DNA of 32,145 nucleotides from Candidatus Parcubacteria bacterium (GCA_046050355.1 JBJOPW010000014.1:1-32145), one strand, 5' to 3'; positions 207 to 21,992 are shown, counted from the stretch's first letter. Notes: generated from the letters alone by a model not told the origin. A program made the numbers and translations.

Positions 207-1547
207 ATGATGGAAACACAAGTGATGAACAATTTCGGAGTTAAAACCGACGTACCAAAAGTACCAGTTAAGTATCTACTATATGCTAGGAAATCTACCG
301 AGTCTGATGAAAAACAAGCACTTTCAATTGATTCGCAAGTTAAGGAGATGTTAGCTATTGCTGAACGTGAACAACTGGATATTGTTGAAATCAGACGTGA
401 GTCACATTCTGCAAAAGATTCAGGTCAACGACCTGTCTTTAAAGAAATACTTGAAGATATTAGGCGAGAACGTTTCAATGGAATTATCGTGTGGCATCCA
501 GACAGACTGAGCAGGAATGCAGGCGATCTAGGTTCACTCGTCGATCTTATGGATCAGCATTTATTAAGAGAAATCCGTACTTATGGTCAAACATTTACAA
601 ACACGCCAAGTGAAAAGTTTCTTCTGATGATTCTGTGTTCTCAAGCAAAACTTGAGAATGACAATAAAAGTATCAATGTGAAGCGGGGACTGAAAACAAG
701 GGTTGAAATGGGATTATGGCCAGCACCAGCGCCAACTGGCTACCTCAAAGAAAAACGCATGGATCGAAAGTGCGAGACGTATATCGACCCTGAACGTGGA
801 CATGTTATAAAACAGATGTTTGAGAAAGTAGCCTACGAGAAATGGTCAGGGAGAAAGGTCTATCACTGGCTTAAATTCGATATTAATTTCAAAGCCCTAC
901 CGAGCAAGAAACCACTCAGTCTCGGCAACATATACAAGTTATTGGAAAATCCATTTTACTACGGAGTATTTGAGTACCCGAAGAAATCTGGTAATTGGTA
1001 TAACGGCAAACATCCACCACTGATTGCTAAAGAGCTATTTGACCAGGTGCAGACACAGCTTAAAGGTAATGAGTTAAAAACCAGACAAGAAAAAGAATTT
1101 GCTTTTACTAAGCTCATGACATGCGGACTCTGTGGATCCGGTATCAGTGCTGATGAAAAATACAAAAAACTCAAGGATGGAAGCATTAAAGCCCATATCT
1201 ACTATGGGTGTACCAAAGCGAGAGACAAAAACTGCAAGTGTGGGTATATAGCCGAGACGGACTTAGTTAAACAATTACAAACTCTAATTGACGGAGTGCA
1301 AATTAATGAAACTTCTGTACAGAAGAAGATTGTTTCAGAAGTGACTAGATATAAAAAATTTGAACTATCTCTACTGGGTCAAGATTTAAATTTCGAGATT
1401 GGTGACATTGATATTAAGAGGTATATTAAGTTTTTGCTAAAAGAAGGGTCGGTGGAGGAGAAGCGTGAAATCATGACCTGTTTTCAGTCACAGATTATTT
1501 TAAGTCAAAAGAGGCTGGAGCTTAGTACCGAAATCTCTCACCGTTAA
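207..1547 (+). CDS. Large serine recombinase (resolvase + recombinase + zinc-ribbon domains)
   Basis: YARKST catalytic Ser motif, SAKDSGQRP, DRLSRN, APTGY, NPFYYG, GKHPPLI, and CGLCG...YYGC...C zinc ribbon. Exact start uncertain. Confidence 0.92.
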   Translation: MMETQVMNNFGVKTDVPKVPVKYLLYARKSTESDEKQALSIDSQVKEMLAIAEREQLDIVEIRRESHSAKDSGQRPVFKEILEDIRRERFNGIIVWHPDRLSRNAGDLGSLVDLMDQHLLREIRTYGQTFTNTPSEKFLLMILCSQAKLENDNKSINVKRGLKTRVEMGLWPAPAPTGYLKEKRMDRKCETYIDPERGHVIKQMFEKVAYEKWSGRKVYHWLKFDINFKALPSKKPLSLGNIYKLLENPFYYGVFEYPKKSGNWYNGKHPPLIAKELFDQVQTQLKGNELKTRQEKEFAFTKLMTCGLCGSGISADEKYKKLKDGSIKAHIYYGCTKARDKNCKCGYIAETDLVKQLQTLIDGVQINETSVQKKIVSEVTRYKKFELSLLGQDLNFEIGDIDIKRYIKFLLKEGSVEEKREIMTCFQSQIILSQKRLELSTEISHR

Positions 1548-1563
1548 ATAATGTCACTAATAG

Positions 1564-1602
1564 TTGCGTACTTTAAAGTCATGTAATATAATAAGTTACA
1601 TG
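1564..1602 (+). promoter_or_regulatory. sigma70-type promoter with overlapping Rrf2-type operator
   Basis: TTGCGT(1564-1569)-N17-TATAAT(1587-1592). Inverted repeat CATGTAA-N9-TTACATG (1580-1602) spans the -10 box and the ATG at 1600. Confidence 0.75.
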
Positions 1603-2229
1603 ATAAACAATGTAGGCAATAATTCCGAACATCACCATGGCGATTATTCGCAAAACGTCTTTGATAACCCAGAGATGTTTATTGAGAAATTTGATGGAGC
1701 AGAACGAGATGGATGGCAAAAACCAGATGAGGTTATCAAATCTTTTAATCTTCGTGACGATGCTGTCGTAGTCGATATAGGTGCAGGTACGGGATACTTC
1801 ACTGTCCGATTGGCTGAACAGGTAAGGAACGGCAAAGTTATCTGTTTTGAACAAGCACCTAAAATGGCAGAGTACCTTAAAGACCGAGTGATTGGATTAG
1901 GACTTGCCAATGTAGATGTACAGACGACTGAGCTAGACGGTAGTTTTAAGTTAGAAGAACAAGCTGATCTTATATTCTCAGTGGATGTTTACCACCACCT
2001 TAAAGATCGTATTGTCTACTTCACCAAAGTTTTAGAATCCCTTAAACCAGAAGGTCAGCTTGTGGTGATTGATAGGACGGAAGAAAAAATTGAAGGTCAG
2101 CCTATGGGACATCGGGTGTCTCCCGATAAAGTGAAGGAAGAAATGAAGGAAGTCGGGTTTGAGCTGATCGAGGAATTAGATTTTTTGCTACCCATTCAAT
2201 ATTATCTGGCATTCAAACGCACTGTATAA
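1600..2229 (+). CDS. Class I SAM-dependent methyltransferase
   Basis: VVDIGAGTGYF motif I, DVYHHL, LKPEGQLVVID. Start moved to ATG 1600 because the TTG at 1564 is the -35 box. Confidence 0.9.
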   Translation: MINNVGNNSEHHHGDYSQNVFDNPEMFIEKFDGAERDGWQKPDEVIKSFNLRDDAVVVDIGAGTGYFTVRLAEQVRNGKVICFEQAPKMAEYLKDRVIGLGLANVDVQTTELDGSFKLEEQADLIFSVDVYHHLKDRIVYFTKVLESLKPEGQLVVIDRTEEKIEGQPMGHRVSPDKVKEEMKEVGFELIEELDFLLPIQYYLAFKRTV

Positions 2230-2235
2230 GCATCT

Positions 2236-2673
2236 ATGAAAAAGAGTACTAAATTTTCAGATGTACTACACATTCTTCTCCATATGGCTGGGTCACAGGA
2301 ACCAACAACATCCGAGGACTTAGCAAAAGCAATGCAAACTAATCCCGTGGTAGTTCGCAGGACAATGGCTGGACTGCGCGAACAGGGCTTTGTGCAGTCT
2401 GAGAAAGGGCACGGGGGTGGATGGTCATTGTCTTGTGACCTTAAGAAAGTAACTCTTCTTGATATATACAAAGCAGTGGAATCACCAGCACTATTGGCAA
2501 TAACTAATCGTAATGAAGGTACAGAGTGTCAGATAGAAAAAGCTGTTAATACTGCTACAAGAGAAGCTTTTGACGAAGCGGAAGCATTATTGATAAAGAA
2601 GTTTTATGATGTCACTTTGGCAAAACTCCTTGACATGATTAAGAAAGATTCTCACAAGCACAGTCACGTCTAA
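2236..2673 (+). CDS. Rrf2 family transcriptional regulator (non-Fe-S, YwnA/SifR-like)
   Basis: TSEDLA...TNPVVVRR...GHGGGW..VTLLDIYKAV. Lacks the three-Cys cluster motif of IscR/NsrR. Confidence 0.9.
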   Translation: MKKSTKFSDVLHILLHMAGSQEPTTSEDLAKAMQTNPVVVRRTMAGLREQGFVQSEKGHGGGWSLSCDLKKVTLLDIYKAVESPALLAITNRNEGTECQIEKAVNTATREAFDEAEALLIKKFYDVTLAKLLDMIKKDSHKHSHV

Positions 2674-2713
2674 GAGACATTGAGAGAATTTTCTATGTTA
2701 AAATAAAATTATT

Positions 2714-3037
2714 ATGAACTTGAAACAAATTTATTTTGGCGCATTTGTTATTGGTACCGCTGTCCCTACTTATTTTGCAGTTTCGTTTATGATCCATGAT
2801 GGAGCACTAAATGTACTTGGTTTCATTCGAGATTTGTTTGCCAACTATGCATCAAGTACCTTTTCATCCGACCTACTCATTGCTTCTTTTGTCTTCTGGA
2901 TATTTCTGTGGCATGATGCTAAAGATCGGGAAGTTCCAAGTATTGGATGATTTATGCTATTGAATTTTTGTGTCGGTCTAAGTTCCGCATTACCACTTTA
3001 TTTGTATTTTAGAGAAAAAATAAGTAACATATTATGA
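2714..3037 (+). pseudogene. DUF2834-like membrane protein interrupted by an in-frame TGA at 2948-2950
   Basis: The frame continues past the TGA as FMLLNFCVGLSSALPLYLYFREKISNIL, a family-typical VG.S.ALPLYLY.RE tail, and ends at TGA 3035-3037 overlapping the next ATG. Confidence 0.75.
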
Positions 3038-3219
3038 AAACATTGAAATGCGATTTGTGCGACGTGACAGCAGATGGTGAAACATTTGAAGACTGGATGC
3101 AGGCACTCATGCCACACTACATGCAAGCTCATGCTGATGTAATGAATGATCCAAATAAAACTAAAGAAGACCAGCAAAAATGGATGGTGGAAAACAAGGT
3201 ACGATTTGACGCGGTATAG
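3034..3219 (+). CDS. Small Cys/His protein (DUF1059-like)
   Basis: MKTLKCxxC...H...H pattern; ATGA overlap with the upstream frame. Confidence 0.6.
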   Translation: MKTLKCDLCDVTADGETFEDWMQALMPHYMQAHADVMNDPNKTKEDQQKWMVENKVRFDAV

Positions 3220-3236
3220 AGCACACCTGCGAAAGT

Positions 3237-3271
3237 ACAAAACAAAACACCCTTTGGGTGTTTTGTTTTGT
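3237..3271. terminator. Bidirectional intrinsic terminator
   Basis: Perfect 16-bp inverted repeat ACAAAACAAAACACCC-ttt-GGGTGTTTTGTTTTGT between the converging island operon and tRNA. Confidence 0.85.
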
Positions 3272-3305
3272 CACAGCTATACTAGCGTCTCGTGCTAGCA
3301 CGACT

Positions 3306-3396
3306 TGGCGGAGAGTGAGGGATTCGAACCCTCGAGGGGTGTGAACCCCTGCCACGTTAGCAGTGTGGTGCCTTCGGCCAGCTCAGCCAACTCTCC
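3306..3396 (-). tRNA. tRNA-Ser(GCT)
   Basis: GGAGAGT...anticodon loop CT-GCT-AA, long variable arm AGGGG-TTCACA-CCCCT, GAGGG-TTCGAAT-CCCTC T arm, encoded CCA. Confidence 0.96.
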
Positions 3397-3474: not shown

Positions 3475-4773
3475 ATGAACCACCAAACTACTTTTTATCA
3501 CGTGCTCGCAAACAACCTCCTCGCCGGTATCACCAATAACCTTGTCTGGTTTGCGCTTACCTTCTGGGTCTATATCGAAACCGAATCAGTACTCGCCACC
3601 TCGTGGATAGCGGGGACCTTTGCTGTTGCGGGCATGTTTGGTGGTTTTGTTTTTGGACCAATTGTCGATCGTGAACGCAAAAAGACCGCGCTTGTGCAAT
3701 CAAGTCTCATGTCGCTTGTTGCCTACTGTATTGGTGCCGCTATTTACTTCACCCATCCAGAGACCACCTGGCAAGAACCCTTCTCCCCGATGCTCTGGAT
3801 ACTGATTTTCGTCCTTATGCTTGGCGTGGTGGCGAACAACCTCCGCATGATTGCCCAGTCGACTATTGTCACCATGCTCTTTGCCGAGAATCGCGATAAA
3901 GCCAACGGGCTCGTTGGCGCCTCGATGGGACTCTCGTTTGCAGTGACCTCAGTATTTAGTGGACTTATCATCGGTTTCTTTGGGATGGGTACGGCAATTA
4001 TAGTAGCAATAAGCGCTACTCTACTAGCCCTCCTGCACCTCGCGTTTATCTCACTGCCCGAAAAAGAAATTGTCCACCTCGAAGAAAAACCCAAACGTAT
4101 CGATATCAAAGGCTCCTACTTCCTCGCCGCCGCCATCCCGGGACTCATCGGTATCATTATCTTTAATACGTTTAACAACTTCCTCGGGGGTGTGTTTATG
4201 GCCTTGATGGATGCCTACGGACTTTCCCTTGTCTCGGTCGAGGCGTGGGGCATTATGTGGGGACTGGTGAGTCTTGCGAGTATTGGTGGGAGTATCTATG
4301 TCAGTCAGCGTGGGGTTGGGGCTCGTCCAATGCGACTCATTATGATACTCAATATGGTGATGTGGGGTGTTTGTCTCATCTTCCCGCTGCAGGCGTCAGT
4401 GCCCCTCCTCGTCGTCGGCATGCTCACCTGGATGCTGTTCTTCCCGGTGATTGAAGCAGCGGAACAAACGGTCATGCAGGCAGTAGTACCATTTGAACAA
4501 CAGGGACGGGTGTTTGGCTTTGCTCAGAGTATTGAAAGTATGGCTACCCCGATCACCACCTTCCTTATCGGACCAATTGCTGCGTTTATCTTTATTCCGT
4601 TTATGACGACCGGTGCTGGTGTTGACCTTATTGGCGACTGGTTCGGTACCGGTGCCAACCGCGGTATGGCGCTCGTTTTTATCCTCGCTGGCCTCCTCGG
4701 TATGATTGCCACCCTGATTGCGTGGGGCTCTCACTCGTACCGATTGTTAAGTCAACATTACGCGGTGCGGTAA
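3475..4773 (+). CDS. MFS transporter (DHA3/macrolide-efflux-like)
   Basis: About 12 hydrophobic segments; GPIVDRERKK motif A-like; VPFEQQGRVFG. Confidence 0.9.
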   Translation: MNHQTTFYHVLANNLLAGITNNLVWFALTFWVYIETESVLATSWIAGTFAVAGMFGGFVFGPIVDRERKKTALVQSSLMSLVAYCIGAAIYFTHPETTWQEPFSPMLWILIFVLMLGVVANNLRMIAQSTIVTMLFAENRDKANGLVGASMGLSFAVTSVFSGLIIGFFGMGTAIIVAISATLLALLHLAFISLPEKEIVHLEEKPKRIDIKGSYFLAAAIPGLIGIIIFNTFNNFLGGVFMALMDAYGLSLVSVEAWGIMWGLVSLASIGGSIYVSQRGVGARPMRLIMILNMVMWGVCLIFPLQASVPLLVVGMLTWMLFFPVIEAAEQTVMQAVVPFEQQGRVFGFAQSIESMATPITTFLIGPIAAFIFIPFMTTGAGVDLIGDWFGTGANRGMALVFILAGLLGMIATLIAWGSHSYRLLSQHYAVR

Positions 4774-4814
4774 AACCAAAAACCACTTCCCGCCGGGAAG
4801 TGGTTTTTGGTTTT
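4772..4814. terminator. Bidirectional intrinsic terminator
   Basis: 20-bp perfect inverted repeat with a gcc loop between convergent genes. Confidence 0.88.
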
Positions 4815-4824
4815 GGATTGAATT

Positions 4825-6075
4825 TTATTTAATCACACTCGCGACCGCTTTCACCAATCCTGGTGTCATCACTGGCGGAATCACCATCTCAGCCGTCGGC
4901 TGCTTTACCAGGCTCGCTATCTTCTTCGCGGCGGCGAGCTTCATTTCATCGGTAATCTTTGTCACACCACGATCAAGGGCGCCACGGAAAATACCGGGGA
5001 ACGCGAGGGAGTTATTCACCTGGTTAGGGTAGTCGCTCCGACCGGTAGCGACCACGTAGGCTCCAGCGCGCTTGGCATCGTCTGGCATGATTTCTGGAAT
5101 CGGATTGGCGAGCGCAAAGACAATTGGCTTTTCGGCCATCTTCTCAATATGGGCTGGTGCAATGGTGCCCGGACCTGAGAGTCCAATGAGCACATCAGCG
5201 CCCGCGACCACACTTTGCACATCACCCTGGAGGCGGTCAGTGTTAGTGGTGAGAGCAAGATCCTTTTTGTACCCAGTAAGGTCCGCGCGTCCTGCATAAA
5301 TAGCCCCTTTACTATCGGTCACAATGATGTGACTGATACCGGCTTTCTTAAGAAGCAGTGTCACTGCGCGCCCTGCGGCACCAGCGCCGACCACGACTAC
5401 CTTCAGATCTTCAAACTTCTTCCCCACCACCTTTGCCGCATTAAGCAGTCCCGCGAGGACTACAATTGCCGTCCCGTGCTGATCATCGTGCATGACCGGA
5501 ATCGAGAGCTCAGCCTTGAGGCGCTCTTCAATCACAAAACAGTGTGGCGCAGCGAAGTCTTCGAGGTTAATCCCGCCAAAGGTCGGCGCAATGGCTTTGA
5601 TGACCTTAATGACTTCCTCTGGGTCCTGCGTATCAAGCACAATTGGGAAGGCGTCGACACCGGCCATCGCTTTGAATATCGCACACTTCCCCTCCATCAC
5701 GGGCAAGGCTGGCACCGCACCGAGGTTTCCGAGACCGAGGATAGCTGAGCCATCAGAGATGACCGCTACCGTATTCTTTTTGATGGTGTATTCGCGTGCT
5801 TCCTTTGGATGCTTGGCGAGGTACGTCGACACAGCACCCACACCAGGACTGTACATGGTACTCCAATCGTCGCGAGTTTCGAGCTTGCCTTTACTCACCA
5901 CCTCAAGCTTCCCTTTGAGTTTTTTGTGGAGGGCGAGCGCCAGCTTGGCGTAGTCTTTTTTCTTGGCCGGTTTTTTGGCAGCGGCTTTTTTGACCACCGG
6001 CTTTACCACCGATTTGGTGGCGGCTTTTTTTGGAGTCGCTTTTTTGGTAACAGGAACTGATTTCTTTGGTGCCAT
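4825..6075 (-). CDS. NAD(P)-dependent malic enzyme (short type, no PTA domain) with Lys/Ala/Pro-rich N-terminal tail
   Basis: YSPGV, VISDGSAILGLGNLG, PVMEGK, GGINLEDF, HDDQHGTAIV, GAGAAG, ALANPIPEI, ATGRSDYPNQVNN. Start placed at ATG 6075; the longer ORF runs through the promoter and repeat. Confidence 0.93.
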   Translation of the reverse strand: MAPKKSVPVTKKATPKKAATKSVVKPVVKKAAAKKPAKKKDYAKLALALHKKLKGKLEVVSKGKLETRDDWSTMYSPGVGAVSTYLAKHPKEAREYTIKKNTVAVISDGSAILGLGNLGAVPALPVMEGKCAIFKAMAGVDAFPIVLDTQDPEEVIKVIKAIAPTFGGINLEDFAAPHCFVIEERLKAELSIPVMHDDQHGTAIVVLAGLLNAAKVVGKKFEDLKVVVVGAGAAGRAVTLLLKKAGISHIIVTDSKGAIYAGRADLTGYKKDLALTTNTDRLQGDVQSVVAGADVLIGLSGPGTIAPAHIEKMAEKPIVFALANPIPEIMPDDAKRAGAYVVATGRSDYPNQVNNSLAFPGIFRGALDRGVTKITDEMKLAAAKKIASLVKQPTAEMVIPPVMTPGLVKAVASVIK

Positions 6076-6132
6076 ACAGAAATGAGTATTTAAAAAAATA
6101 ATGCTCCTAGTATAGCATTGACGGCGTGAGAT

Positions 6133-6244
6133 ACGAAAAAACCCGTCATGAGTCTCTCGGCTACTACAGTAGCGGTACTCATAACAGGTGTGTGGTTCCA
6201 AGCGGTAGCTTGGGGTGGCTCACCCCCTTGTGAGGGACGAGCCG
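6133..6244 (-). repeat. Structured 3'-UTR RNA motif, copy 1 (family A), ending in a terminator
   Basis: 98/112 nt identical to 9208-9319. Three hairpins followed by a U-tract on the minus strand. Confidence 0.88.
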
Positions 6245-6265
6245 GTTGATTGGGAGACGCCCAGG

Positions 6266-7033
6266 TCAGGACGCCGCGGCGGCGCGCTTCTCGTGGCCGG
6301 CGCCGGACGACTTGGTCTCGGCGATGGTCGAAGCGGGCGGAATGCCGATTCCGAAGGCGGACAGGCCGGTGGTCGAGATGTCGACGATGTTGCCGTCTTC
6401 GCCCAGGCGGCCGATGTGGCCCTTGGACACCCAGGTCTGGCCCGATTTCGTCGCTTCCACGGCCAGCACGATGTCCTTGGCGGAGTCCTCGGCAACGATG
6501 AAGACCATCTCCGCGAGAACCACCTTCGTGACATCGAGGAGCGTACCTTCGCCGACCTGCAGATGGTTGCTGAAGATCAGCTCTGCGCCATCACCCGTGC
6601 CGGTCATCTTGCCGAGGTATTCGCCACCGTTGGCCTGCATCAGCTTGATCGCGACGAGACGCGAGTCGATCTTCAGCGCCTTGCCGTTGTCGAGCATCAG
6701 GACGCCGCCCGAGCGGACGGCTTCGAAGTCGAGACCGTTGTCGCCCGACTGCAGTTCAGCCGTCGCAAAGACCATGTTGTCGTCGAGGTCGTAGGTGCCG
6801 AGACCGACGCTCAGGAGCGACGAGTCTTCGCCCGGCTGCATCGCGATGAAACGACCGGATTCGGCGCGGGCGATGAGGTAGTTGCCGACGATGTCGGCCG
6901 GCAGTTCGATCAGGTCGACCTTGATGGAAGCGATGGAATTGTCCAGCGTGTTGGCCGCCACGATCGTGGGAACCGACGACGCCAGGATCAAGGCCATGGT
7001 CGTGGCGACAGTGCGTTTCGAAGTGGTCTTCAT
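6266..7033 (-). CDS. Orphan GC-rich secreted protein (Sec-type signal peptide), cassette A
   Basis: 255 aa; MKTTSKR + hydrophobic stretch + VAA. SD GGGAG 7 nt before ATG. 60-68% GC in sampled lines with mostly G/C-ending codons. Confidence 0.8.
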   Translation of the reverse strand: MKTTSKRTVATTMALILASSVPTIVAANTLDNSIASIKVDLIELPADIVGNYLIARAESGRFIAMQPGEDSSLLSVGLGTYDLDDNMVFATAELQSGDNGLDFEAVRSGGVLMLDNGKALKIDSRLVAIKLMQANGGEYLGKMTGTGDGAELIFSNHLQVGEGTLLDVTKVVLAEMVFIVAEDSAKDIVLAVEATKSGQTWVSKGHIGRLGEDGNIVDISTTGLSAFGIGIPPASTIAETKSSGAGHEKRAAAAS

Positions 7034-7200
7034 TGGGTCTCTCCCGTTGGTTGCTTCAATGATCTTTCACACCTCATCCGTCCGAAGACGGCGGTGTCGT
7101 GCAGAACAAACATCAGTTTGCAGGCACAGGGCGACATTTAATCACATATCAAATACGAATACAAGTGACTTATACCAAACTGCCTATAACCAAATCTCAG

Positions 7201-7321
7201 ATACGAAAAAGGCCATACGAGGGTGCCCATTCGTCTGCCTATGCAGAGGGTACCTTGTATGGACTTGGGTGGAAGCAAATGCTTCCGGGTTGGGAGCGGT
7301 CGAGGGGACCGCTCCCAAACC
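7201..7321 (-). repeat. Structured 3'-UTR RNA motif, copy 3 (family B)
   Basis: Same architecture as family A with different sequence: GGGAGCGGTC/GACCGCTCCC hairpin, GGAAGC-N4-GCTTCC, long stem capped by TCTGC-N4-GCAGA, then TTTTTCGTAT. Confidence 0.75.
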
Positions 7322-7365
7322 TCATGTGCGCTTGGGATGATCACGCGATCTGGCTGACATCGCGG

Positions 7366-7560
7366 TCACGACAGCTTGATGTTGGTGAAGACGGCAGCGC
7401 CCGCGGCTTCCATGTCCAGGCCCAGCGAGGCGTCCTTGTCGGCCGTGATGTGCCCGGTGTCACCGATCTTCGTCTCGACCTTGCCACTCGAACCGCCGCG
7501 CGCCGCATCGACCATGGCATAGGTCCGTCCGCGCAGTGCGCGCATCGTGAGATTTTTCAT
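7366..7560 (-). CDS. Orphan GC-rich 64-aa protein, cassette B
   Basis: GGAGAGGTG just upstream of ATG 7560; promoter TTGCAG-N17-TATAAA; GC3-rich codons. Confidence 0.65.
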   Translation of the reverse strand: MKNLTMRALRGRTYAMVDAARGGSSGKVETKIGDTGHITADKDASLGLDMEAAGAAVFTNIKLS

Positions 7561-7837
7561 TTCACCTCTCCATCCGATTTCTATTGGGGGTACGCCCCGC
7601 AACCACCTCCCTGTATCCGGAGTGGTACTTACCTTTATACTCCGATTAATAAATCTCTGCAAGAAGACAGGGAGCGAGTATGGGTATATTAAAAATCAGC
7701 AAAACGTCTCAGTATTTAAAAAAAATTGGCATTGGAAAAGGCGCGGTGAAGATGTAGAGACATCAGCAGATTCGCGCCTTTACCGATGATAATCTTCGAC
7801 GGGTCGTACGACGCGTCGGTAGACGGTTCGGTGTCGT

Positions 7838-8086
7838 TTAGCAAGGAACCCTCCTGGGGTGTTGACGATAGTCGCGGGGCTGGAACAGTTCCAGTCCGCC
7901 ATCATCATGAAAACGAAGATACTCGTAGCGTCCATCGTCAAGCCGACGACAAACGAGCTGCAGTTCTTCTCGAGCGAACAGCTCGGACTCGTGCACATGC
8001 CAGTAACTGCAGGCTACAGCCAGCAACACCGCTTCGGACAACCGCAGAGGGGGTCCATGGTCGTGTAAAGAACGGAAGTCAAACAT
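7838..8086 (-). CDS. Orphan 82-aa protein, cassette C
   Basis: AAAGGAGG (8093-8100) 6 nt before ATG 8086; possible TTGGTG-N17-TACTAT promoter. Confidence 0.55.
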   Translation of the reverse strand: MFDFRSLHDHGPPLRLSEAVLLAVACSYWHVHESELFAREELQLVCRRLDDGRYEYLRFHDDGGLELFQPRDYRQHPRRVPC

Positions 8087-8190
8087 CTCGGGCCTCCTTT
8101 CTAGGCTCGGGTGGTGACGCATCATGCGGTACCTACTTTTATAGTACAGACAAATATTCCAAACACCAACACCATCGCTGGTTATAAAAC

Positions 8191-8267
8191 AAAAAACCCA
8201 GCCGTAAAGGCTGGTTGTCATACTTTATTCCGGAAGGCAGCGATGCTCGGCATCGCTGCCTTTCGGA
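8191..8267 (-). terminator. Strong 3' hairpin plus intrinsic terminator of cassette D
   Basis: 13-bp perfect stem AAGGCAGCGATGC/GCATCGCTGCCTT (8234-8262), then CCAGCC-N5-GGCTGG with a U-tract on the minus strand. Confidence 0.75.
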
Positions 8268-8287
8268 CACGATCAGATTTCCTTTGG

Positions 8288-8725
8288 TCATACTATCTTC
8301 CCGTTCTTCACCCGAGGACCACGACCCTGACGCCTCGTAGCCGAAGCCGGGGGAGTGTTCAGCCGCTGCCAGAACGGCTCCAGTTTGGGTGGTTCCAAGT
8401 CAGGAAGTGGCATCTCCACCACCTTATGTGACCCGAAAAAAATCTCTGAAACCCCCAGCTGAGCGACAGTATCAACCTCCACCAAGAGCGGCTGGCGGAT
8501 GACCCCGAAGCTGAGACCAGCTGCAGGATCGAGGTCTGGCACTAACAAGCCAAGACCACTCGTAAAGGCGCGGAGAGCGTGCACCTCTTGGTCTGGTGGT
8601 TGCAGAAAGGAACTGCCATCATCCACCACAACAATGACCGCCACTTCATCTCCCTCGCCTGAAAGGCGACTCCGCACCGCCGCAGCAATCGCCGCTGCCG
8701 TAGTGCACACATCGACTCTCTTCAT
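8288..8725 (-). CDS. Orphan ~145-aa protein, cassette D
   Basis: AGGGAGG (8734-8740) 8 nt before ATG 8725; promoter TTGCGT-N17-TATAGT; alternative start 8743. Confidence 0.65.
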   Translation of the reverse strand: MKRVDVCTTAAAIAAAVRSRLSGEGDEVAVIVVVDDGSSFLQPPDQEVHALRAFTSGLGLLVPDLDPAAGLSFGVIRQPLLVEVDTVAQLGVSEIFFGSHKVVEMPLPDLEPPKLEPFWQRLNTPPASATRRQGRGPRVKNGKIV

Positions 8726-8786
8726 CTTTCTAGCCTCCCTCATGCTTTCCTACCGCTACTATACGGACAGGCTACTTAAAACGCAA

Positions 8787-8825
8787 ATACGAAAAAGGCC
8801 ATACGCGGAAGCCCGTTCATCTACC
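8787..8825 (-). repeat. Truncated family-B motif (3' arm only)
   Basis: 33/39 nt identical to 7201-7239; the pairing 5' arm is absent. Confidence 0.75.
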
Positions 8826-8851
8826 AGAGACATTCTCGACACAGAAGCAAC

Positions 8852-9184
8852 CTACTCATGAGTAGAAAAACCCACAAAGTGTATCTGGTGTGTACTAGCC
8901 GTACCTTGTTGTTTGAAGTCTCTAATTGACCCCTCAACTGATACATATCTCTGGATCTTTCCGGTTTCATCGGCAGCTTCAATAATAAGTACCTGCCCCT
9001 TTTCTGTATCTTCGAGTTTGGCACCATACAAGGCACTCTCTTGTAATTCTTTGGTAACTGGTATTTCTACCTGCACTTGTAGATTGTATCGTCCAGGCGG
9101 TAAACCTGCCTTTGATTGTATATAAGCAAACAGTTTCTCATGCGGAGTTAAGACTGACTCAGCAGATACCGGTTTTTCAAACAT
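8852..9184 (-). CDS. Hypothetical protein, AT-rich, leaderless type
   Basis: 110-aa ORF; TG-c-TATAAT 7 nt before ATG; no SD. Confidence 0.7.
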   Translation of the reverse strand: MFEKPVSAESVLTPHEKLFAYIQSKAGLPPGRYNLQVQVEIPVTKELQESALYGAKLEDTEKGQVLIIEAADETGKIQRYVSVEGSIRDFKQQGTASTHQIHFVGFSTHE

Positions 9185-9207
9185 ATACGTAATTATAGCA
9201 AACTCAG

Positions 9208-9319
9208 ACGAAAAAACCCGTCATGAGTCCCTCGGCTACAATAGTAGCAGTACTCATAACAGGTGGATTAATCCAAGCGAATGCTTGGGGTGGCTCACCC
9301 CCTTGTGAGGGGTGAGCCG
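9208..9319 (-). repeat. Structured 3'-UTR RNA motif, copy 2 (family A)
   Basis: 98/112 nt identical to 6133-6244; differences lie in loops and linker or become G-U pairs. Confidence 0.88.
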
Positions 9320-9337
9320 TTGTTGGAACGATCAGGT

Positions 9338-9712
9338 CTACTGCGCCATCATGAGGCGCATCCGGCCGCCGGCTCCGTGTCCAACGAGCTGCTTCAGACC
9401 GGCAGCGAGGCGCGCGACGTGTCCCCCGGCCGCTGAAGCGAAAGTGCGATGCGACTTCGCCGATCCGCCTTCCGGCTGGCGCCGATAGAAATTGTCATCC
9501 ATGTCGCGCCGAAGGACCAGATGATCGCCCATGATCAGTCGACCGGCCGACATCAGCCTGAGGGCGATCGCACCGGCGCCCACGGCGAGCACGATGAGGG
9601 CGACGAGTCCGACATCGAGCCTGAACGAGGCGCTGGCCAGCATCGTGATGAGGAACAGAGGGGCGAGAATCAAAACGGCCGCAGCCGCGAAAAGACGGAA
9701 GTCAAGTTTCAT
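9338..9712 (-). CDS. Orphan GC-rich membrane protein (2 TM), cassette E
   Basis: SD GGGAG 8 nt before ATG 9712; promoter TTGCAC-N17-TATTGT; two hydrophobic N-terminal helices. Confidence 0.72.
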   Translation of the reverse strand: MKLDFRLFAAAAVLILAPLFLITMLASASFRLDVGLVALIVLAVGAGAIALRLMSAGRLIMGDHLVLRRDMDDNFYRRQPEGGSAKSHRTFASAAGGHVARLAAGLKQLVGHGAGGRMRLMMAQ

Positions 9713-9831
9713 CAGTAACACTCCCAGGTTGGTTTCGAAACAGCGACACACCATGTGCCACTCAAAATACAATACGCCCAATTGCCAGAGAGTGCAATAG
9801 GTAGCGGTCTAATTTGCTATACTACTCTCAC

Positions 9832-12096
9832 ATGTCCCCGAACGACCTTCTCACTACTCATTTCCGTGTTGACACCATCCACCAGAAGGCGCTCAAGCGA
9901 CTGGGTATCACCACCGTCTACGATCTCCTCATGCACCTCCCCGCTCGCTACGAGGACGTCAGTGATATTCAATCGGTTGGTGGTCTCGTCAAAGATCAAG
10001 AGGCCATCGTCTTTGGCCAGCTGTCTGGCCTTAAGACCCGTAAAGCCTGGAAGAGCAAACGCCCCATCTCCGAAGGCTACATCGAAGACGGCTCGGCCAA
10101 GATAAAGGTGATGTGGTTCAACCAACCGTACATGGCCAAGATGTACAGCGATGGTATGTATGTGAAGCTGGTTGGCAAAGTAACCGGTAGCGAAGGTAAG
10201 CTCTATATCGCCAACCCCGAAGTCGAAAAACTCGATACCCTCCCCGTCGACCGTCACGACAGTATCTTCAAAGGGAGCGAAATCACCGACGACACCATCT
10301 ACCCGGTCTACCGCGAGACCAAAGGCGTGACGAGCAAGTGGTTCTACCATACGGCGCTCAAGTGTTTTGAGAAGGGCGTGCTTGAAACCCTCCTTGACCC
10401 CATTCCTGAAGCAATACTCACGAAGTACAAACTCCCCAATCTCAAGACCGCCCTCGTCTGGATTCATAGTCCAAAGAAGGCTGAGCACGCGGAGAGTGCT
10501 CGCAAGCGCTTCGCCTTTGAAGAAGTCTTTTATATTCAAGTACAGAAGGCACTTGATCGCGCTGCCGTGAGCGCCGCCACCACGTATCAGGTGAATACCG
10601 ACAAGAAACATCTTGAAGCTTTCACCAGCCGCTTCCCCTTTGCACTGACGCCAGCGCAAGAGACTGCCATCGCGACTATCATCAAAAACTTCACCGATAA
10701 TGTCGCCATGAGTCGCCTCCTTGAGGGAGATGTGGGGAGCGGCAAGACCGCGGTCGCAGCCACTACCGCGTACGCGGTCGCGACCTCACGTCCACCCGAA
10801 GGCCGAAAAAATTATACCACAAAAAACTCAAGTACGAGGCAAGACCTCGAACAAGTACGAGGTCTTGCCTCGTCTGTTGCTGATTTGGAATATGGAAACT
10901 TGCAGGTGGCGTATATGGCACCGACGGAAATTTTGGCCAAGCAACACTTCGAATCATTTATTGAGTACTTCAAACACCTCCCTATCAACATTGGCCTTAT
11001 CACCGGGAGTGGTTGCCAAAAGTTCCCGAGCAAAAGTAACCCAAACAAGCCCACCCCCATCAGCAAAGCCCAGCTCCTGAAGTGGGTCAAAAACGGCGAG
11101 GTACCCATCCTCATCGGTACCCATGCGCTCATCTACAAGAGTGTTGAGTTCAAACACCTCGCCTACGTCATTATCGACGAGCAGCACCGTTTTGGGACCA
11201 ATCAGCGGAAGGCACTTGCGAAGAAAGACGCTCGCATGCCACACCTCCTCTCGATGACTGCGACCCCAATTCCCCGTACGCTCGCGCTCACTATCTACGG
11301 CGACCTTGATATCACGCTCCTTGATCAAATGCCCAAGGGGCGCAAACCCATCATCACCAAAATCATTGGCCCTGGCCAAGCAGCGTCGATGTACGACCAT
11401 GTCCGCAGTGAACTCGAGACCGGTAGACAGGCCTATGTCATCTGTCCACGGATTGAGGAACCTGACCCGGACAAACAAACCGCTTTGATTCTCAAATCCG
11501 TCACCGCTGAAGCGGAGCGCCTTGGTAAAACCGAATTCAAAGACTGGCGCCTCGGGGTACTCCACGGCAAGATGACCCCGGCTGAAAAGGATAAAGTGAT
11601 GGCGAGGTTTGCAGCGCACGAACTTGATATCTTGGTCGCAACGTCGGTAGTTGAAGTCGGCGTGAACGTGCCAAATGCGACGAATATCATCATCGAAGGT
11701 GCTGAACGGTTTGGTCTCTCGCAGCTCCACCAGCTACGTGGCCGTGTTGTGCGTGGAACTCACCAGCCGTACTGCTTTGCGGTGACTGATAGTAAAAGTG
11801 AGAAAACGAAAGAACGCCTTAAGGCACTAGTGACTGCCAAAAATGGATTTGAACTCGCCGAACACGACCTCACCTTCCGCGGTAGCGGCGAACTCTATGG
11901 GGCGAAGCAGTCTGGTCTCTCCGACCTCGGGATGGAAGCGATTAAGAACCTCAAGCTCGTCGAGGCGGCGCGCAACGAAGCCCGCGACCTCGTCGCCCAC
12001 CTTCCCTTCAATCACACCACCCCCGACCTTGCCCGCCACTTCCCCCTCATCGCCGAGCGTGTTGCAAAAATTGGCGAAAGCCTGCATATGGAATGA
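9832..12096 (+). CDS. recG: ATP-dependent DNA helicase RecG
   Basis: Wedge domain (WFNQPY), RLLEGDVGSGKT, MAPTEILAKQH, IIDEQHRFG, MTATPIPRTL, AERFGLSQLHQLRGRV, NGFELAEHDL.FRGSGE. Confidence 0.97.
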   Translation: MSPNDLLTTHFRVDTIHQKALKRLGITTVYDLLMHLPARYEDVSDIQSVGGLVKDQEAIVFGQLSGLKTRKAWKSKRPISEGYIEDGSAKIKVMWFNQPYMAKMYSDGMYVKLVGKVTGSEGKLYIANPEVEKLDTLPVDRHDSIFKGSEITDDTIYPVYRETKGVTSKWFYHTALKCFEKGVLETLLDPIPEAILTKYKLPNLKTALVWIHSPKKAEHAESARKRFAFEEVFYIQVQKALDRAAVSAATTYQVNTDKKHLEAFTSRFPFALTPAQETAIATIIKNFTDNVAMSRLLEGDVGSGKTAVAATTAYAVATSRPPEGRKNYTTKNSSTRQDLEQVRGLASSVADLEYGNLQVAYMAPTEILAKQHFESFIEYFKHLPINIGLITGSGCQKFPSKSNPNKPTPISKAQLLKWVKNGEVPILIGTHALIYKSVEFKHLAYVIIDEQHRFGTNQRKALAKKDARMPHLLSMTATPIPRTLALTIYGDLDITLLDQMPKGRKPIITKIIGPGQAASMYDHVRSELETGRQAYVICPRIEEPDPDKQTALILKSVTAEAERLGKTEFKDWRLGVLHGKMTPAEKDKVMARFAAHELDILVATSVVEVGVNVPNATNIIIEGAERFGLSQLHQLRGRVVRGTHQPYCFAVTDSKSEKTKERLKALVTAKNGFELAEHDLTFRGSGELYGAKQSGLSDLGMEAIKNLKLVEAARNEARDLVAHLPFNHTTPDLARHFPLIAERVAKIGESLHME
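10834..10873. repeat. Palindromic (REP/RPE-like) element inside recG
   Basis: Perfect 16-bp inverted repeat ACGAGGCAAGACCTCG-N8-CGAGGTCTTGCCTCGT. Confidence 0.8.
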
Positions 12097-21562: not shown

Positions 21563-21988
21563 GGGGATGCCAGGCATCGACGGAATTGCATCGTCCCCGT
21601 GTGCAGTGCGAGTGCTGCTCGAGATCACTCTGAAAAACTCGAGTACCTGTACGTGCAAAGAATAGCGTACCAAGTCCTTACGCCAACGCGTTTGGATTCG
21701 CTCCCGCTGTAGCGTAACTTACGCACGGTACGTTAAAGGCCTCGCCTCTAACGTACCGAGCCGGACGACGCTCGCTTCCCTCATGTCTCATACGGGAATG
21801 CGGGTGAAATAGCCATGAGGCTCTGACTTTTTATGCCGTTTTCATAAAAAGTTGAATTTCTTAAAACTCGGCGCCTGGTTGTTTTGTCTTCTTTCTAGAC
21901 CAGTCGCTTAAACCAAAAGGAAGTCTACGCACTGTAGACTCACGGTGACATCAATTCTCGGACTGGGGTTCGAATCCCCACATCTCCA
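21563..21988 (+). ncRNA. ssrA: tmRNA
   Basis: 5' GGGGATG pairs with 3' CATCTCC-A including G3-U; T arm TGGGG-TTCGAAT-CCCCA; tag frame 21655-21717 AKNSVPSPYANAFGFAPAVA*; close to smpB. Confidence 0.93.
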
Positions 21989-21992
21989 CATT

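Follow-up and report, generated by a model that had tools for sequence, protein, structure and literature searches.

Gene array between recG and the malic-enzyme gene

The stretch of DNA analysed here (hereafter the window; 32,145 nucleotides of a Candidatus Parcubacteria bacterium with a 0.94-Mb genome, G000) contains six stand-alone genes, A, B, C, D, D′ and E, all on the minus strand of the gap that separates a divergently transcribed recG from a malic-enzyme gene (Table 1). ATG codons that an earlier note on this DNA had placed at 7033, 7560, 8086, 8725 and 9712 open five of them (255, 64, 82, 145 and 124 amino acids); the strand, the sixth cassette D′ and the occurrence of the same class of gene elsewhere in the genome and the genus were absent from that note, whose observation is real and also broader than stated.

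Table 1 Features of the recG–malic gap and its flanks (positions in the window)
Feature	Position	Strand	Description
Malic-enzyme gene	4825..6075	-	Pfam malic and Malic_M; conserved downstream hotspot flank
T1 3′ element, copy 1 (downstream of A)	6125..6262	-	three hairpins then U run
Cassette A ORF, 255 aa	6266..7033	-	N-terminal signal-like hydrophobic stretch; GC1/2/3 = 0.60/0.44/0.86
Cassette A promoter and 5′ UTR module	7034..7215	-	hairpin; SD GGGAG at 7041-7045
T2 3′ element of cassette B	7190..7365	-	hairpins then CCUUUUUCG tail; z -5.16
Cassette B ORF, 64 aa	7366..7560	-	SD GGAGAGGTG at 7563-7571; GC3 0.83
Cassette C 3′ end	7700..7837	-	hairpin and U8 run; z -4.93
Cassette C ORF, 82 aa	7838..8086	-	SD AAAGGAGG at 8093-8100
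Cassette D 3′ element	8190..8287	-	long hairpin, terminator hairpin and U run; z -5.95
Cassette D ORF, 145 aa	8288..8725	-	SD AGGGAGG at 8734-8740; GC3 0.59
Cassette D′ 3′ end	8775..8851	-	common T2-type tail (repeat D3)
Cassette D′ ORF, 110 aa	8852..9184	-	AT-rich, GC3 0.33; without SD
T1 3′ element, copy 2 (downstream of E)	9200..9337	-	z -6.24; 88% identical to copy 1
Cassette E ORF, 124 aa	9338..9712	-	hydrophobic N-terminal segments; SD GGGAG at 9721-9725; GC3 0.75
recG	9814..12096	+	Pfam RecG_wedge, DEAD and Helicase_C; conserved divergent hotspot flank

The gap is a genus-wide insertion hotspot. The malic-enzyme gene adjoins recG throughout the genus (recG itself being present in 55 of 60 genomes), and the distance between them, computed by hand in the 39 relatives in which this was possible, ranges from approximately zero (<100 bp) to 3.7 kb, with a gene content that differs among genomes from nothing up to six genes. 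None of the six array proteins has a Pfam hit, so that no recombinase or mobility gene was recognized within the array, as the earlier note had said of integrases and transposases. The nearest recombinase is a serine recombinase at 207–1547 (4.7 kb away and the only one in the first 16.5 kb); MFS and malic-enzyme genes stand between the array and both this gene and a tRNA at 3309–3396, and neither a mobility gene nor a tRNA lies directly at the hotspot border. Likewise, neither an origin of transfer nor border repeats nor genes for secretion were found in linkage with the array.

Cassettes A, B and E are GC-rich, as had been noted (GC 0.63–0.64 and GC3 0.75–0.86, versus a GC3 of 0.487 for core genes), and no strong bias is seen in C and D (GC3 0.56 and 0.59). 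The 3′ ends of A to E are strongly structured (z −4.6 to −6.2 relative to shuffled sequences; for T1 copy 1, −56.9 kcal/mol and z −4.60), and the 3′ end of the added cassette D′ folds no better than its shuffles (z +0.18). Five of the six cassettes have the hallmark of intrinsic terminators, a GC-rich hairpin with a U run after it; a strict terminator scan detects a single site on the minus strand, that of cassette D (8198–8214). The six cassettes have elements of four types, which fold into terminators of several hairpins plus U runs and, where repeated, are common to only two cassettes within the window: T1 is a 112-nt repeat (copy 1 being 88% identical to 9208–9319) that is conserved in L003, G025 and G007, and T2 has a 48-nt module in common with 8778–8825 and two places in L003. 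By contrast with the N17-spaced sigma-70-like promoters previously ascribed to most cassettes, a strict scan of 5900–9950 for TTGACA-N17-TATAAT (≥9/12 consensus positions overall and ≥4/6 in each hexamer) found no promoter, and inspection by eye showed no more than −10-like boxes and weak −35 hexamers of the TTG type. These boxes look native (that is, of the carrier's type) rather than foreign. Cassette D′ apparently has the native, leaderless format, as its TATAAT (9192–9197) ends 7 nt before the ATG, in agreement with the genome-wide −10 peak described below.

Shine–Dalgarno motifs and the organism's own translation system

A GGAG-type Shine–Dalgarno (SD) motif, sought about 4–11 nt before the start, lies 6–8 nt ahead of the ATG in five of the six cassettes, and the motifs reported earlier for A to E were all found (Table 1). 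This enrichment extends across the hotspot: when one uniform rule (rule R) was applied alike to cassette-strand, opposite-strand and core ORFs, 26 of 33 cassette-strand ORFs from 22 gaps (20 gaps having been fetched) were GGAG-led, versus 83/857 core ORFs (Fisher p = 2e-19) and none of 41 opposite-strand gap ORFs, with control 4-mers at 9–18% in the same count. Counted by family, 17 of 22 cassette families are GGAG-led, spread over 15 of the 22 loci.

The ribosome of the carrier offers no canonical partner for this motif. Its 16S rRNA tail reads GGATTAATTCCAAT..., as in 11/11 genus loci, and the CCUCC core is missing from the tail in G000, in all 11 genus loci and in 5/5 loci from other families of the order (16 loci read, that is, the full-length ones holding the 3′ end among 30 fetched). 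Core genes correspondingly show no SD use: GGAG, GAGG or AGGA occurs at −18 to −4 in 7.5% of 854 ORFs (≥100 aa) versus 9.2% at random positions, so that what had been observed for a few housekeeping genes holds genome-wide, and with operon-internal genes included the GGAG frequency (83/857) falls within the 6–12% of control motifs. Core genes instead look largely leaderless, with TATA enriched 5.6-fold at −20 to −4, T at −1 in 55% and a −10 hexamer peak at −15 to −12 in 83 of 853 ORFs. As far as the available parts of two papers go, several candidate phyla radiation (CPR) groups are listed as having neither CCUCC nor SD use (PLoS One 2024, PMC10783764), and a Parcubacteria subgroup that lost the anti-SD motif overlaps the group lacking uL1 (RNA 2022, PMC9297842), a protein that is also missing from G000. 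The background state of G000 matches the known one of SD-scarce CPR lineages without CCUCC; for genomes of this kind, the same parts of these papers make no mention of accessory genes that form an SD-led class.

Two further measurements bear on which ribosome the leaders suit. For GGAA, which would pair perfectly with the carrier's UUCC tail, the count is 3 of 33 cassette ORFs, with no enrichment; as GGAG is enriched and GGAA is not, the motifs fit a canonical CCUCC tail rather than the carrier's own. Leader–tail duplexes also reach −7.6 to −12.3 kcal/mol with the canonical tail, versus −3.8 to −7.4 kcal/mol with the organism's own. In the genome-wide comparison of SD motif and GC3 that had been proposed, the two are associated even among the 850 core ORFs (GGAG in 6/21 with GC3 ≥0.65, versus 75/829 below; p = 0.01).

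Conserved modules, diverging proteins and related genes

Compared with L003, the UTR modules of the window are 82–92% identical, and the proteins are 53% (A), 68% (B; dN 0.20, dS 0.17), 68% (D) and 38% (E) identical, cassette C being absent from L003 (a gap in the alignment). The flanking proteins are 93–94% identical, with synonymous sites of their genes near saturation (dS 1.1–1.2). For cassette A, the 5′ module is 90% identical to L003 and 92% to G007, with A proteins at most 53% identical, and the G025 copy of the protein is only 24% identical, though the modules around it are ~90% identical; the copy in G007 has one in-frame stop. E-like genes occupy the same position in L003, G025, G007 and G031. 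All four cassettes common with L003 retain GGAG, and cassette A does so in four genomes. Motif and UTRs look conserved rather than decaying, which is odd for sequences expected to have no use in this organism and flanked by genes with near-saturated synonymous sites, unless the cassettes postdate the divergence of the species.

The proteins are orphans. Cassette A has homologues in only 4 clusters by word search and 10 representative clusters by profile, the contexts seen belong to relatives of this organism only, and the family was not found in 300 other genomes of the order save for one marginal match (E = 8.8e-4). The protein evolves fast; its model (AF2 pLDDT 82.7) suggests an all-beta structure, and the predicted fold has no match in the PDB. 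For D, only 5 clusters (66–71% identity) were found among 5.8 billion proteins. The cassettes have no nucleotide match in 50,697 phage and 72,556 plasmid records and no PHROG match better than E = 0.065, and the protein, phage and plasmid searches yielded no syntenic high-GC or phage DNA that might represent a donor.

Approximately 11 further genes of G000 combine a leader, GGAG and high GC3, mostly with a hairpin-plus-T-run terminator, and about half of them have a clear TTGAC-type −35 and a −10 box; the two that were followed across the genus are sporadic (full-length matches in 1/60 and 2/60 genomes). Contig C4 additionally carries a GC3-rich, ICE-like region with a coupling protein, a relaxase and DUF3768. 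Some genes of this class appear to encode sorting signals of other cell types. A PEP-CTERM motif (PF07589, E = 1.6e-7 and 1.1e-4) occurs in hotspot cassettes of G062 and G026 (3 homologue clusters for the protein), and exosortase (PF09721) was found in none of three genomes (G000, G062 and G026), but this search detected only 1 of 14 controls. Other GGAG-led genes have, by eye, twin-arginine-like and lipobox-like signals, and no TatC, TatA, Lgt or LspA was found in G000; AAGGAG and an RR-x-FL motif are retained together in three orthologues (58–71% identity). The idea that cassette proteins are mostly secreted was rejected because N-terminal hydrophobic stretches are not enriched (10/29 cassette proteins versus 258/850, p = 0.68).

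Origin and role of the cassettes

We regard it as probable, if only just, that these genes are horizontally acquired, fast-diversifying accessory cassettes in a foreign format. Repeated capture into a cassette scaffold, which the earlier note had offered as an alternative, fits best given the genus-wide hotspot, the UTR modules common to cassettes and the faster divergence of ORFs than of UTRs. The array would then consist of six accessory genes, each independently transcribed, inserted at the recG–malic hotspot, five of them in the foreign format (that is, a canonical SD of GGAG type on a leadered mRNA, a complex hairpin-plus-U terminator and, in A, B and E, strongly GC-rich third codon positions). 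We infer that their source may have been GC-richer, SD-using bacteria, directly or through a mobile gene pool in common with them, and that they may have arrived as whole expression units, as phage morons do. As promoter/5′ UTR and terminator modules held in common would provide homology for recombination, ORFs could be swapped, or diverge, inside a conserved scaffold. Several observations sit uneasily with this reading: no donor was found and the families seen occur in this lineage alone, UTRs and GGAG are conserved, the promoters look native, C and D have modest GC3, and the array holds no mobility gene.

Among known systems, chromosomal integration hotspots or flexible genomic islets resemble the array in their conserved core flanks (here recG and malic enzyme), variable content, atypical composition and orphan cargo. 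The array differs in having no integrase, transposase or adjacent tRNA, in a cargo of self-contained promoter–leader–ORF–terminator units with common UTR modules, and in a carrier ribosome without a partner sequence for the cargo's SD. Phage morons sit between phage genes as autonomous promoter–gene–terminator units whose composition deviates; the cassettes are likewise independent transcription units with terminators, most of them deviating in composition, but their flanks are housekeeping genes with no phage genes nearby, and neither PHROG nor the phage records gave a convincing match.

A possible but unlikely alternative is that the cassettes form a native second expression class, in which a leaderless, SD-less core coexists with leadered accessory genes that depend on GGAG. 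The motif would be read by weak GGAG:UUCC pairing with a G–U pair, by another rRNA site or by a protein, and a recombination hotspot with biased gene conversion, or else mRNA selection, would account for the high GC3. Such a class would account for the maintenance of GGAG and whole UTR modules between species with a flank dS of ~1.2, the motif being kept genus-wide in most cassette families, and for the lineage-confined families and native-looking −10 boxes. It is difficult to reconcile with the preference for GGAG over GGAA, the weak duplexes with the carrier's tail and the lack of GGAG enrichment in native genes, operon-internal ones included; furthermore, PEP-CTERM, Tat-like and lipobox-like signals without the corresponding machinery suggest that the genes originated in a different type of cell.

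The earlier note had interpreted the array as tuned for a different ribosome and codon pool and as possibly encoding mRNA delivered to a host as an effector. The first part stands, on the basis of the GGAG and GGAA counts and the duplex energies, and the second is unsupported, as no linked export device was found and ordinary horizontal transfer accounts for the same features. In a wider form, the cassettes would be nucleic acid formatted for a partner cell, delivered as mRNA or DNA and translated on partner ribosomes with a canonical anti-SD. Canonical SD motifs, GC3-rich codons and stable 3′ structures would all suit a cell other than the carrier, as would, for the wider class, the conserved sorting signals that the carrier has no machinery to process. 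We nevertheless consider such delivery very unlikely, given that plain horizontal transfer leaves all of these features, that nothing resembling a transfer or secretion system is linked to the array, that the −10 boxes are of the carrier's own type and that one copy of A is interrupted by a stop codon. We know of no precedent for host-directed expression cassettes delivered as mRNA or DNA. The T-DNA genes of Agrobacterium have a format that serves their expression in the recipient, and the cassettes resemble them in that genes in one organism have expression signals suited to another; unlike T-DNA, the array shows neither border repeats nor a linked system for transfer, nor any sign that transfer occurs.

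Still less probable is an integron-like, site-specific cassette array: short co-oriented ORFs bounded by repeated structured elements, with content varying among relatives, recall integrons, but neither the array nor its immediate neighbourhood contains an intI-type tyrosine recombinase or other integrase, the elements resemble terminators made of several hairpins with U runs rather than attC-like single imperfect hairpins, no attC recurs at every 3′ end (each repeat being common to two cassettes only), and a −10-like box and a terminator belong to each cassette separately in place of a single common promoter. The array is not an assembly artefact, and the chance of a chimera or high-GC contamination, which the sharp composition shift at the cassette borders might suggest, is minute, as L002, L003 and many genomes of the genus show the same architecture and flanks, contig depth is uniform and a single contig of run X3 covers 4500–8814.

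Returning to horizontally acquired cassettes as the preferred reading, translation in this cell would proceed without canonical SD pairing, as it presumably does for leadered and operon-internal native genes. With A predicted to be all-beta and exported, and E to be a membrane protein, the cassette proteins probably have a part in interactions with other cells or mobile elements.

The cassette array between recG and the malic-enzyme gene

The source genome (G000; 939,894 bp in 17 contigs, GC ~48%), of which the window is an entire contig (C14), carries six minus-strand cassettes, A, B, C, D, D' and E, between recG and the malic-enzyme gene. The five start codons named in an earlier note are confirmed as ATGs on the minus strand, and all of the Shine–Dalgarno (SD) strings quoted there were found, with the GGAG core 6-8 nt ahead of the ATG; the sixth cassette, D', was absent from that list. 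For comparison with the GC at third codon positions (GC3) of the cassettes, core GC3 is 0.487 (850 core ORFs of G000), and the GC of cassette A by codon position 1/2/3 (0.60/0.44/0.86) indicates a genuine coding frame of the high-GC type.

Features of the window, with the array in minus-strand order followed by elements outside it
Feature	Coordinates	Strand	GC3	Remark
recG	9814-12096	+		divergent flank, first in minus-strand order
Cassette E ORF	9338-9712	-	0.75	
Cassette D' ORF	8852-9184	-	0.33	
Cassette D ORF	8288-8725	-	0.59	
Cassette C ORF	7838-8086	-	0.56	
Cassette B ORF	7366-7560	-	0.83	
Cassette A ORF	6266-7033	-	0.86	
Malic-enzyme gene	4825-6075	-		last in minus-strand order
Large serine recombinase	207-1547			
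Methyltransferase	1564-2229			
Rrf2 regulator	2236-2673			
tRNA	3309-3396	-		
tmRNA	21563-21991			Rfam, 104.6 bits

The RNA 3' of five of the six ORFs folds with z scores of -4.6 to -6.2 relative to shuffles and has U runs at its end, D' being the exception (z +0.18). Two 3' modules are repeated within the array (that is, T1, a 112-nt three-hairpin element with copies after A and after E that are 88% identical, and T2, a 48-nt tail found after B and after D'), and the rest of the G000 genome holds no further copy of either. Across four genomes, the five T1 copies compared all retain the three hairpins, and one base pair is compensatory. A strict promoter scan of the array returned no site; by eye, a -10-like box stands in front of each cassette, with a TTG-type -35 at 17 nt in some. 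One RNA run (X4) gave no contig over the window, a result that carries no weight for or against expression. Ahead of cassette B (7600-7660, minus strand), an inverted repeat, CGGAGT...ACTCCG, flanks the -10-like box TATAAA, and the corresponding box of cassette C, together with its downstream bases, is near-identical (TATAAAAGTAGGTACC versus TATAAAGGTAAGTACC); the two may share a common operator or promoter module. Rfam recovered only the tmRNA and one tRNA at gathering scores across the window, and the array gave sub-threshold chance matches only.

Elsewhere in the window, genes for a large serine recombinase, a methyltransferase and an Rrf2 regulator adjoin the tRNA gene, and positions 207-3396, where the contig begins, may represent a small integrated element. 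The malic enzyme (window 4825-6201; 6950-8200 in the metagenome locus L003) has a lysine/alanine-rich N-terminal extension of ~45 residues ahead of its Pfam domain, which is less conserved than the remainder of the protein.

A canonical SD format in an SD-less genome

The single 16S gene of G000 has the 3' end ...GGATTAATTCCAAT..., without a CCUCC core. Among the full-length loci from which 16S tails were read (16 of 30 fetched), 11/11 genus loci in which the 3' end is covered carry the same tail, and 5/5 from the order's other families end differently, all of them CCUCC-less. SD-like 4-mers precede 7.5% of 854 G000 ORFs (>=100 aa) versus 9.2% of random positions, so that the SD-less background guessed at in the earlier note is borne out, both upstream of genes and in the 16S. 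Ahead of the same 854 ORFs, TATA is 5.6-fold enriched at -20..-4 and T occupies -1 in 55%. A -10 hexamer peaks at -15..-12, and many G000 genes therefore look leaderless. Ribosomal protein uL1 was not found in G000 by a search that matched 14/14 control genomes. In two published studies, the anti-SD motif is described as missing in a Parcubacteria subgroup that overlaps the uL1-less group (PMC9297842), and several CPR groups as SD-scarce and without CCUCC (PMC10783764); the G000 background is consistent with this published anti-SD loss in CPR. In the 16S gene (C5:49441-50899 in G000; loci L005-L019), the tail just past helix 45 can pair with the bases after it (genus version, TCCAATTGGA), and both halves of this pairing co-vary in the order's other families (TTCC..GGAA, TTCA..TGAA); a conserved stem is thereby suggested at or slightly past the 16S 3' end, in the usual anti-SD position.

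The array is one case of a hotspot found across the genus. Of 60 sampled genus genomes, 55 encode recG and 52 the malic enzyme, and the two genes are neighbours wherever a single contig carries both (39 relatives; distances by hand), separated by gaps of <100 bp to 3.7 kb, that of G000 being the largest. We applied one uniform rule (GGAG ending 4-11 nt ahead of a possible start codon among codons 1-40; ORFs >=50 aa with GC3 >=0.58 and above GC2) to 20 fetched gaps, the window and L003. By this rule, 26/33 cassette-strand ORFs are GGAG-led versus 83/857 G000 core ORFs (Fisher p = 2e-19) and 0/41 opposite-strand ORFs within the gaps; unrelated control 4-mers score 9-18%. As cassette ORFs share ancestry, families were also counted, and the motif leads 17/22 families and occurs in 15/22 loci. 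GGAA, the perfect pair for the UUCC of the genome's own tail, leads only 3/33 cassette-strand ORFs, and the duplexes formed by cassette leaders have energies of -7.6 to -12.3 kcal/mol when the tail is canonical and of -3.8 to -7.4 kcal/mol when it is the genome's own (core means, -4.25 and -3.22 kcal/mol, respectively). The cassette motif is thus canonical and unadapted to this ribosome. Two hotspot cassettes of relatives (L046 of G019, 920-1444, and L048 of G029, 200-691) encode cold-shock-domain proteins, one of them with two such stretches.

The format extends beyond the hotspot. About 11 further G000 genes combine a leader, GGAG and raised GC3, most with a hairpin-plus-T-run terminator and about half with a clear TTGAC-type -35 and -10 box; two such scattered genes checked across the genus are sporadic (full-length in 1/60 and 2/60 genomes). 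Contig C4 holds an ICE-like stretch (C4:14001-34000; L054) with GC3 of 0.72-0.77 that encodes two coupling-protein-like ATPases, a relaxase, an HTH protein, DUF3768, a type III restriction-modification system and an SNF2 helicase. Some GGAG-led genes have, by eye, twin-arginine-like and lipobox-like signal peptides. An MDRR-x-FL...A-x-AC signal, which resembles a twin-arginine signal combined with a lipobox, occurs on GGAG-led accessory genes of five genus members (C6:28108-28638 of G000; L062, L063, L064 and L065), where it precedes two mature proteins unrelated to each other, and the RR-x-FL motif and AAGGAG are retained in three orthologues of 58-71% identity; searches of G000 found no TatC, TatA, Lgt or LspA. 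PEP-CTERM proteins are encoded in hotspot cassettes of G062 (L041, 250-840) and G026 (L049, 259-915), and no exosortase was found in G000, G062 or G026 with a search that matched only 1/14 control genomes. The proposition that most cassette proteins are secreted does not hold (N-terminal hydrophobic stretches in 10/29 cassette versus 258/850 core proteins).

Rapid divergence of the cassette ORFs

L003, from a related species, is syntenic with the array (recG, E', two-gene cassette F, G, D, B, A, malic enzyme). Relative to the window, its flanking proteins are 93-94% identical (dS 1.12-1.19, dN 0.04) and its promoter/leader and terminator modules 82-92% identical, whereas the cassette proteins share only 53% (A), 68% (B), 68% (D) and 38% (E) identity, with dN of 0.20-0.70; in G025, the protein in the A position is 24% identical to A between modules of ~90% identity. 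The ORFs therefore change far faster than their surrounding scaffold, through either diversifying selection or allele replacement by recombination via the conserved modules. For A, B and D, the lower dS (0.17-0.56 versus ~1.15 for the flanks) is ambiguous, as high GC3 lowers the saturation level. Low-depth alternative contigs end exactly at module edges (6182, 7624 and 8826; each a single contig, depth 2.9-5.1), a weak hint both of recombination via modules and of variant cassettes within the population. A recent exchange of the block with L003 through the flanks is unsupported, flank identity being flat at ~0.80-0.87 with no gradient towards the array. In G007, the gene in the A position has an in-frame stop.

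No usable match to any of the six cassette proteins came from Pfam, PHROGs (best E = 0.065), PADLOC or NCBIfam. Cassette D has only five close clusters, and its ESM Atlas scores (<=0.80) are at noise level. The A family is small, with proteins of 240-260 aa in 10 representative clusters by profile, one homologue being labelled Pacebacteria; in 300 other genomes of the order it gave one marginal match and no other. The predicted structure of A, for which pLDDT rose from 36.7 with 5 sequences to 82.7 with 13, is a confident, all-beta model with no Foldseek match in the PDB at E <= 0.001 (TM-scores <=0.18).

Origin and significance of the cassettes

The most economical reading is that the hotspot captures foreign expression units: it would gather them as whole units, comparable to phage morons, from a gene pool of GC-richer, SD-using bacteria, with an occasional native-format gene such as D' sitting alongside. 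Very large databases show no donor, be it in profile searches of genome contigs with the A alignment, in phage and plasmid DNA, or with the Tat-like protein (only two CPR MAGs), and neither the GGAG nor the UTR modules nor the Tat-like motif seem to be decaying; they look conserved. Two other readings are therefore worth keeping. The first is that initiation follows a native, GGAG-dependent route, against which the rarity of GGAA and the SD-less native genes both argue. The second, which we regard as very improbable, is that the cassettes are units for a partner bacterium, handed over as mRNA or DNA and translated and sorted there; the canonical SD that the carrier ribosome cannot pair, the GC3-rich codons, the protected 3' ends and the Tat-like, lipobox-like and PEP-CTERM signals kept by the wider class, whose machinery the carrier lacks, would all fit it. 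Of the interpretation in the earlier note, the formatting for another ribosome (canonical GGAG, not GGAA) holds and capture into a scaffold fits, but mRNA export is unsupported. An integron can be dismissed, as no integrase lies in or next to the array and the cassettes have their own -10-like boxes and terminators, and so can an assembly chimera, given the same architecture between the same flanks in relatives and the even contig depth.

Anti-SD loss in some CPR lineages has already been published (PMC9297842, PMC10783764); in the literature as available to us, we found no account of a systematic, self-contained accessory class with canonical SDs and high GC3 in anti-SD-less genomes. The pattern recurs systematically, was not expected and lends itself to direct testing. 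Should the class be imported, its format would be a built-in marker of foreign genes and may fingerprint the donors or hosts of Parcubacteria as GC-rich cells that possess Tat, lipoprotein and exosortase systems; if GGAG works in this cell, it would represent a new way of start-site choice; and if the cassettes are used in a partner cell, they would constitute a novel kind of bacterium–bacterium interaction. In every case, the recG-to-malic-enzyme locus provides a defined, comparable site at which to track gene flux in an uncultured lineage.
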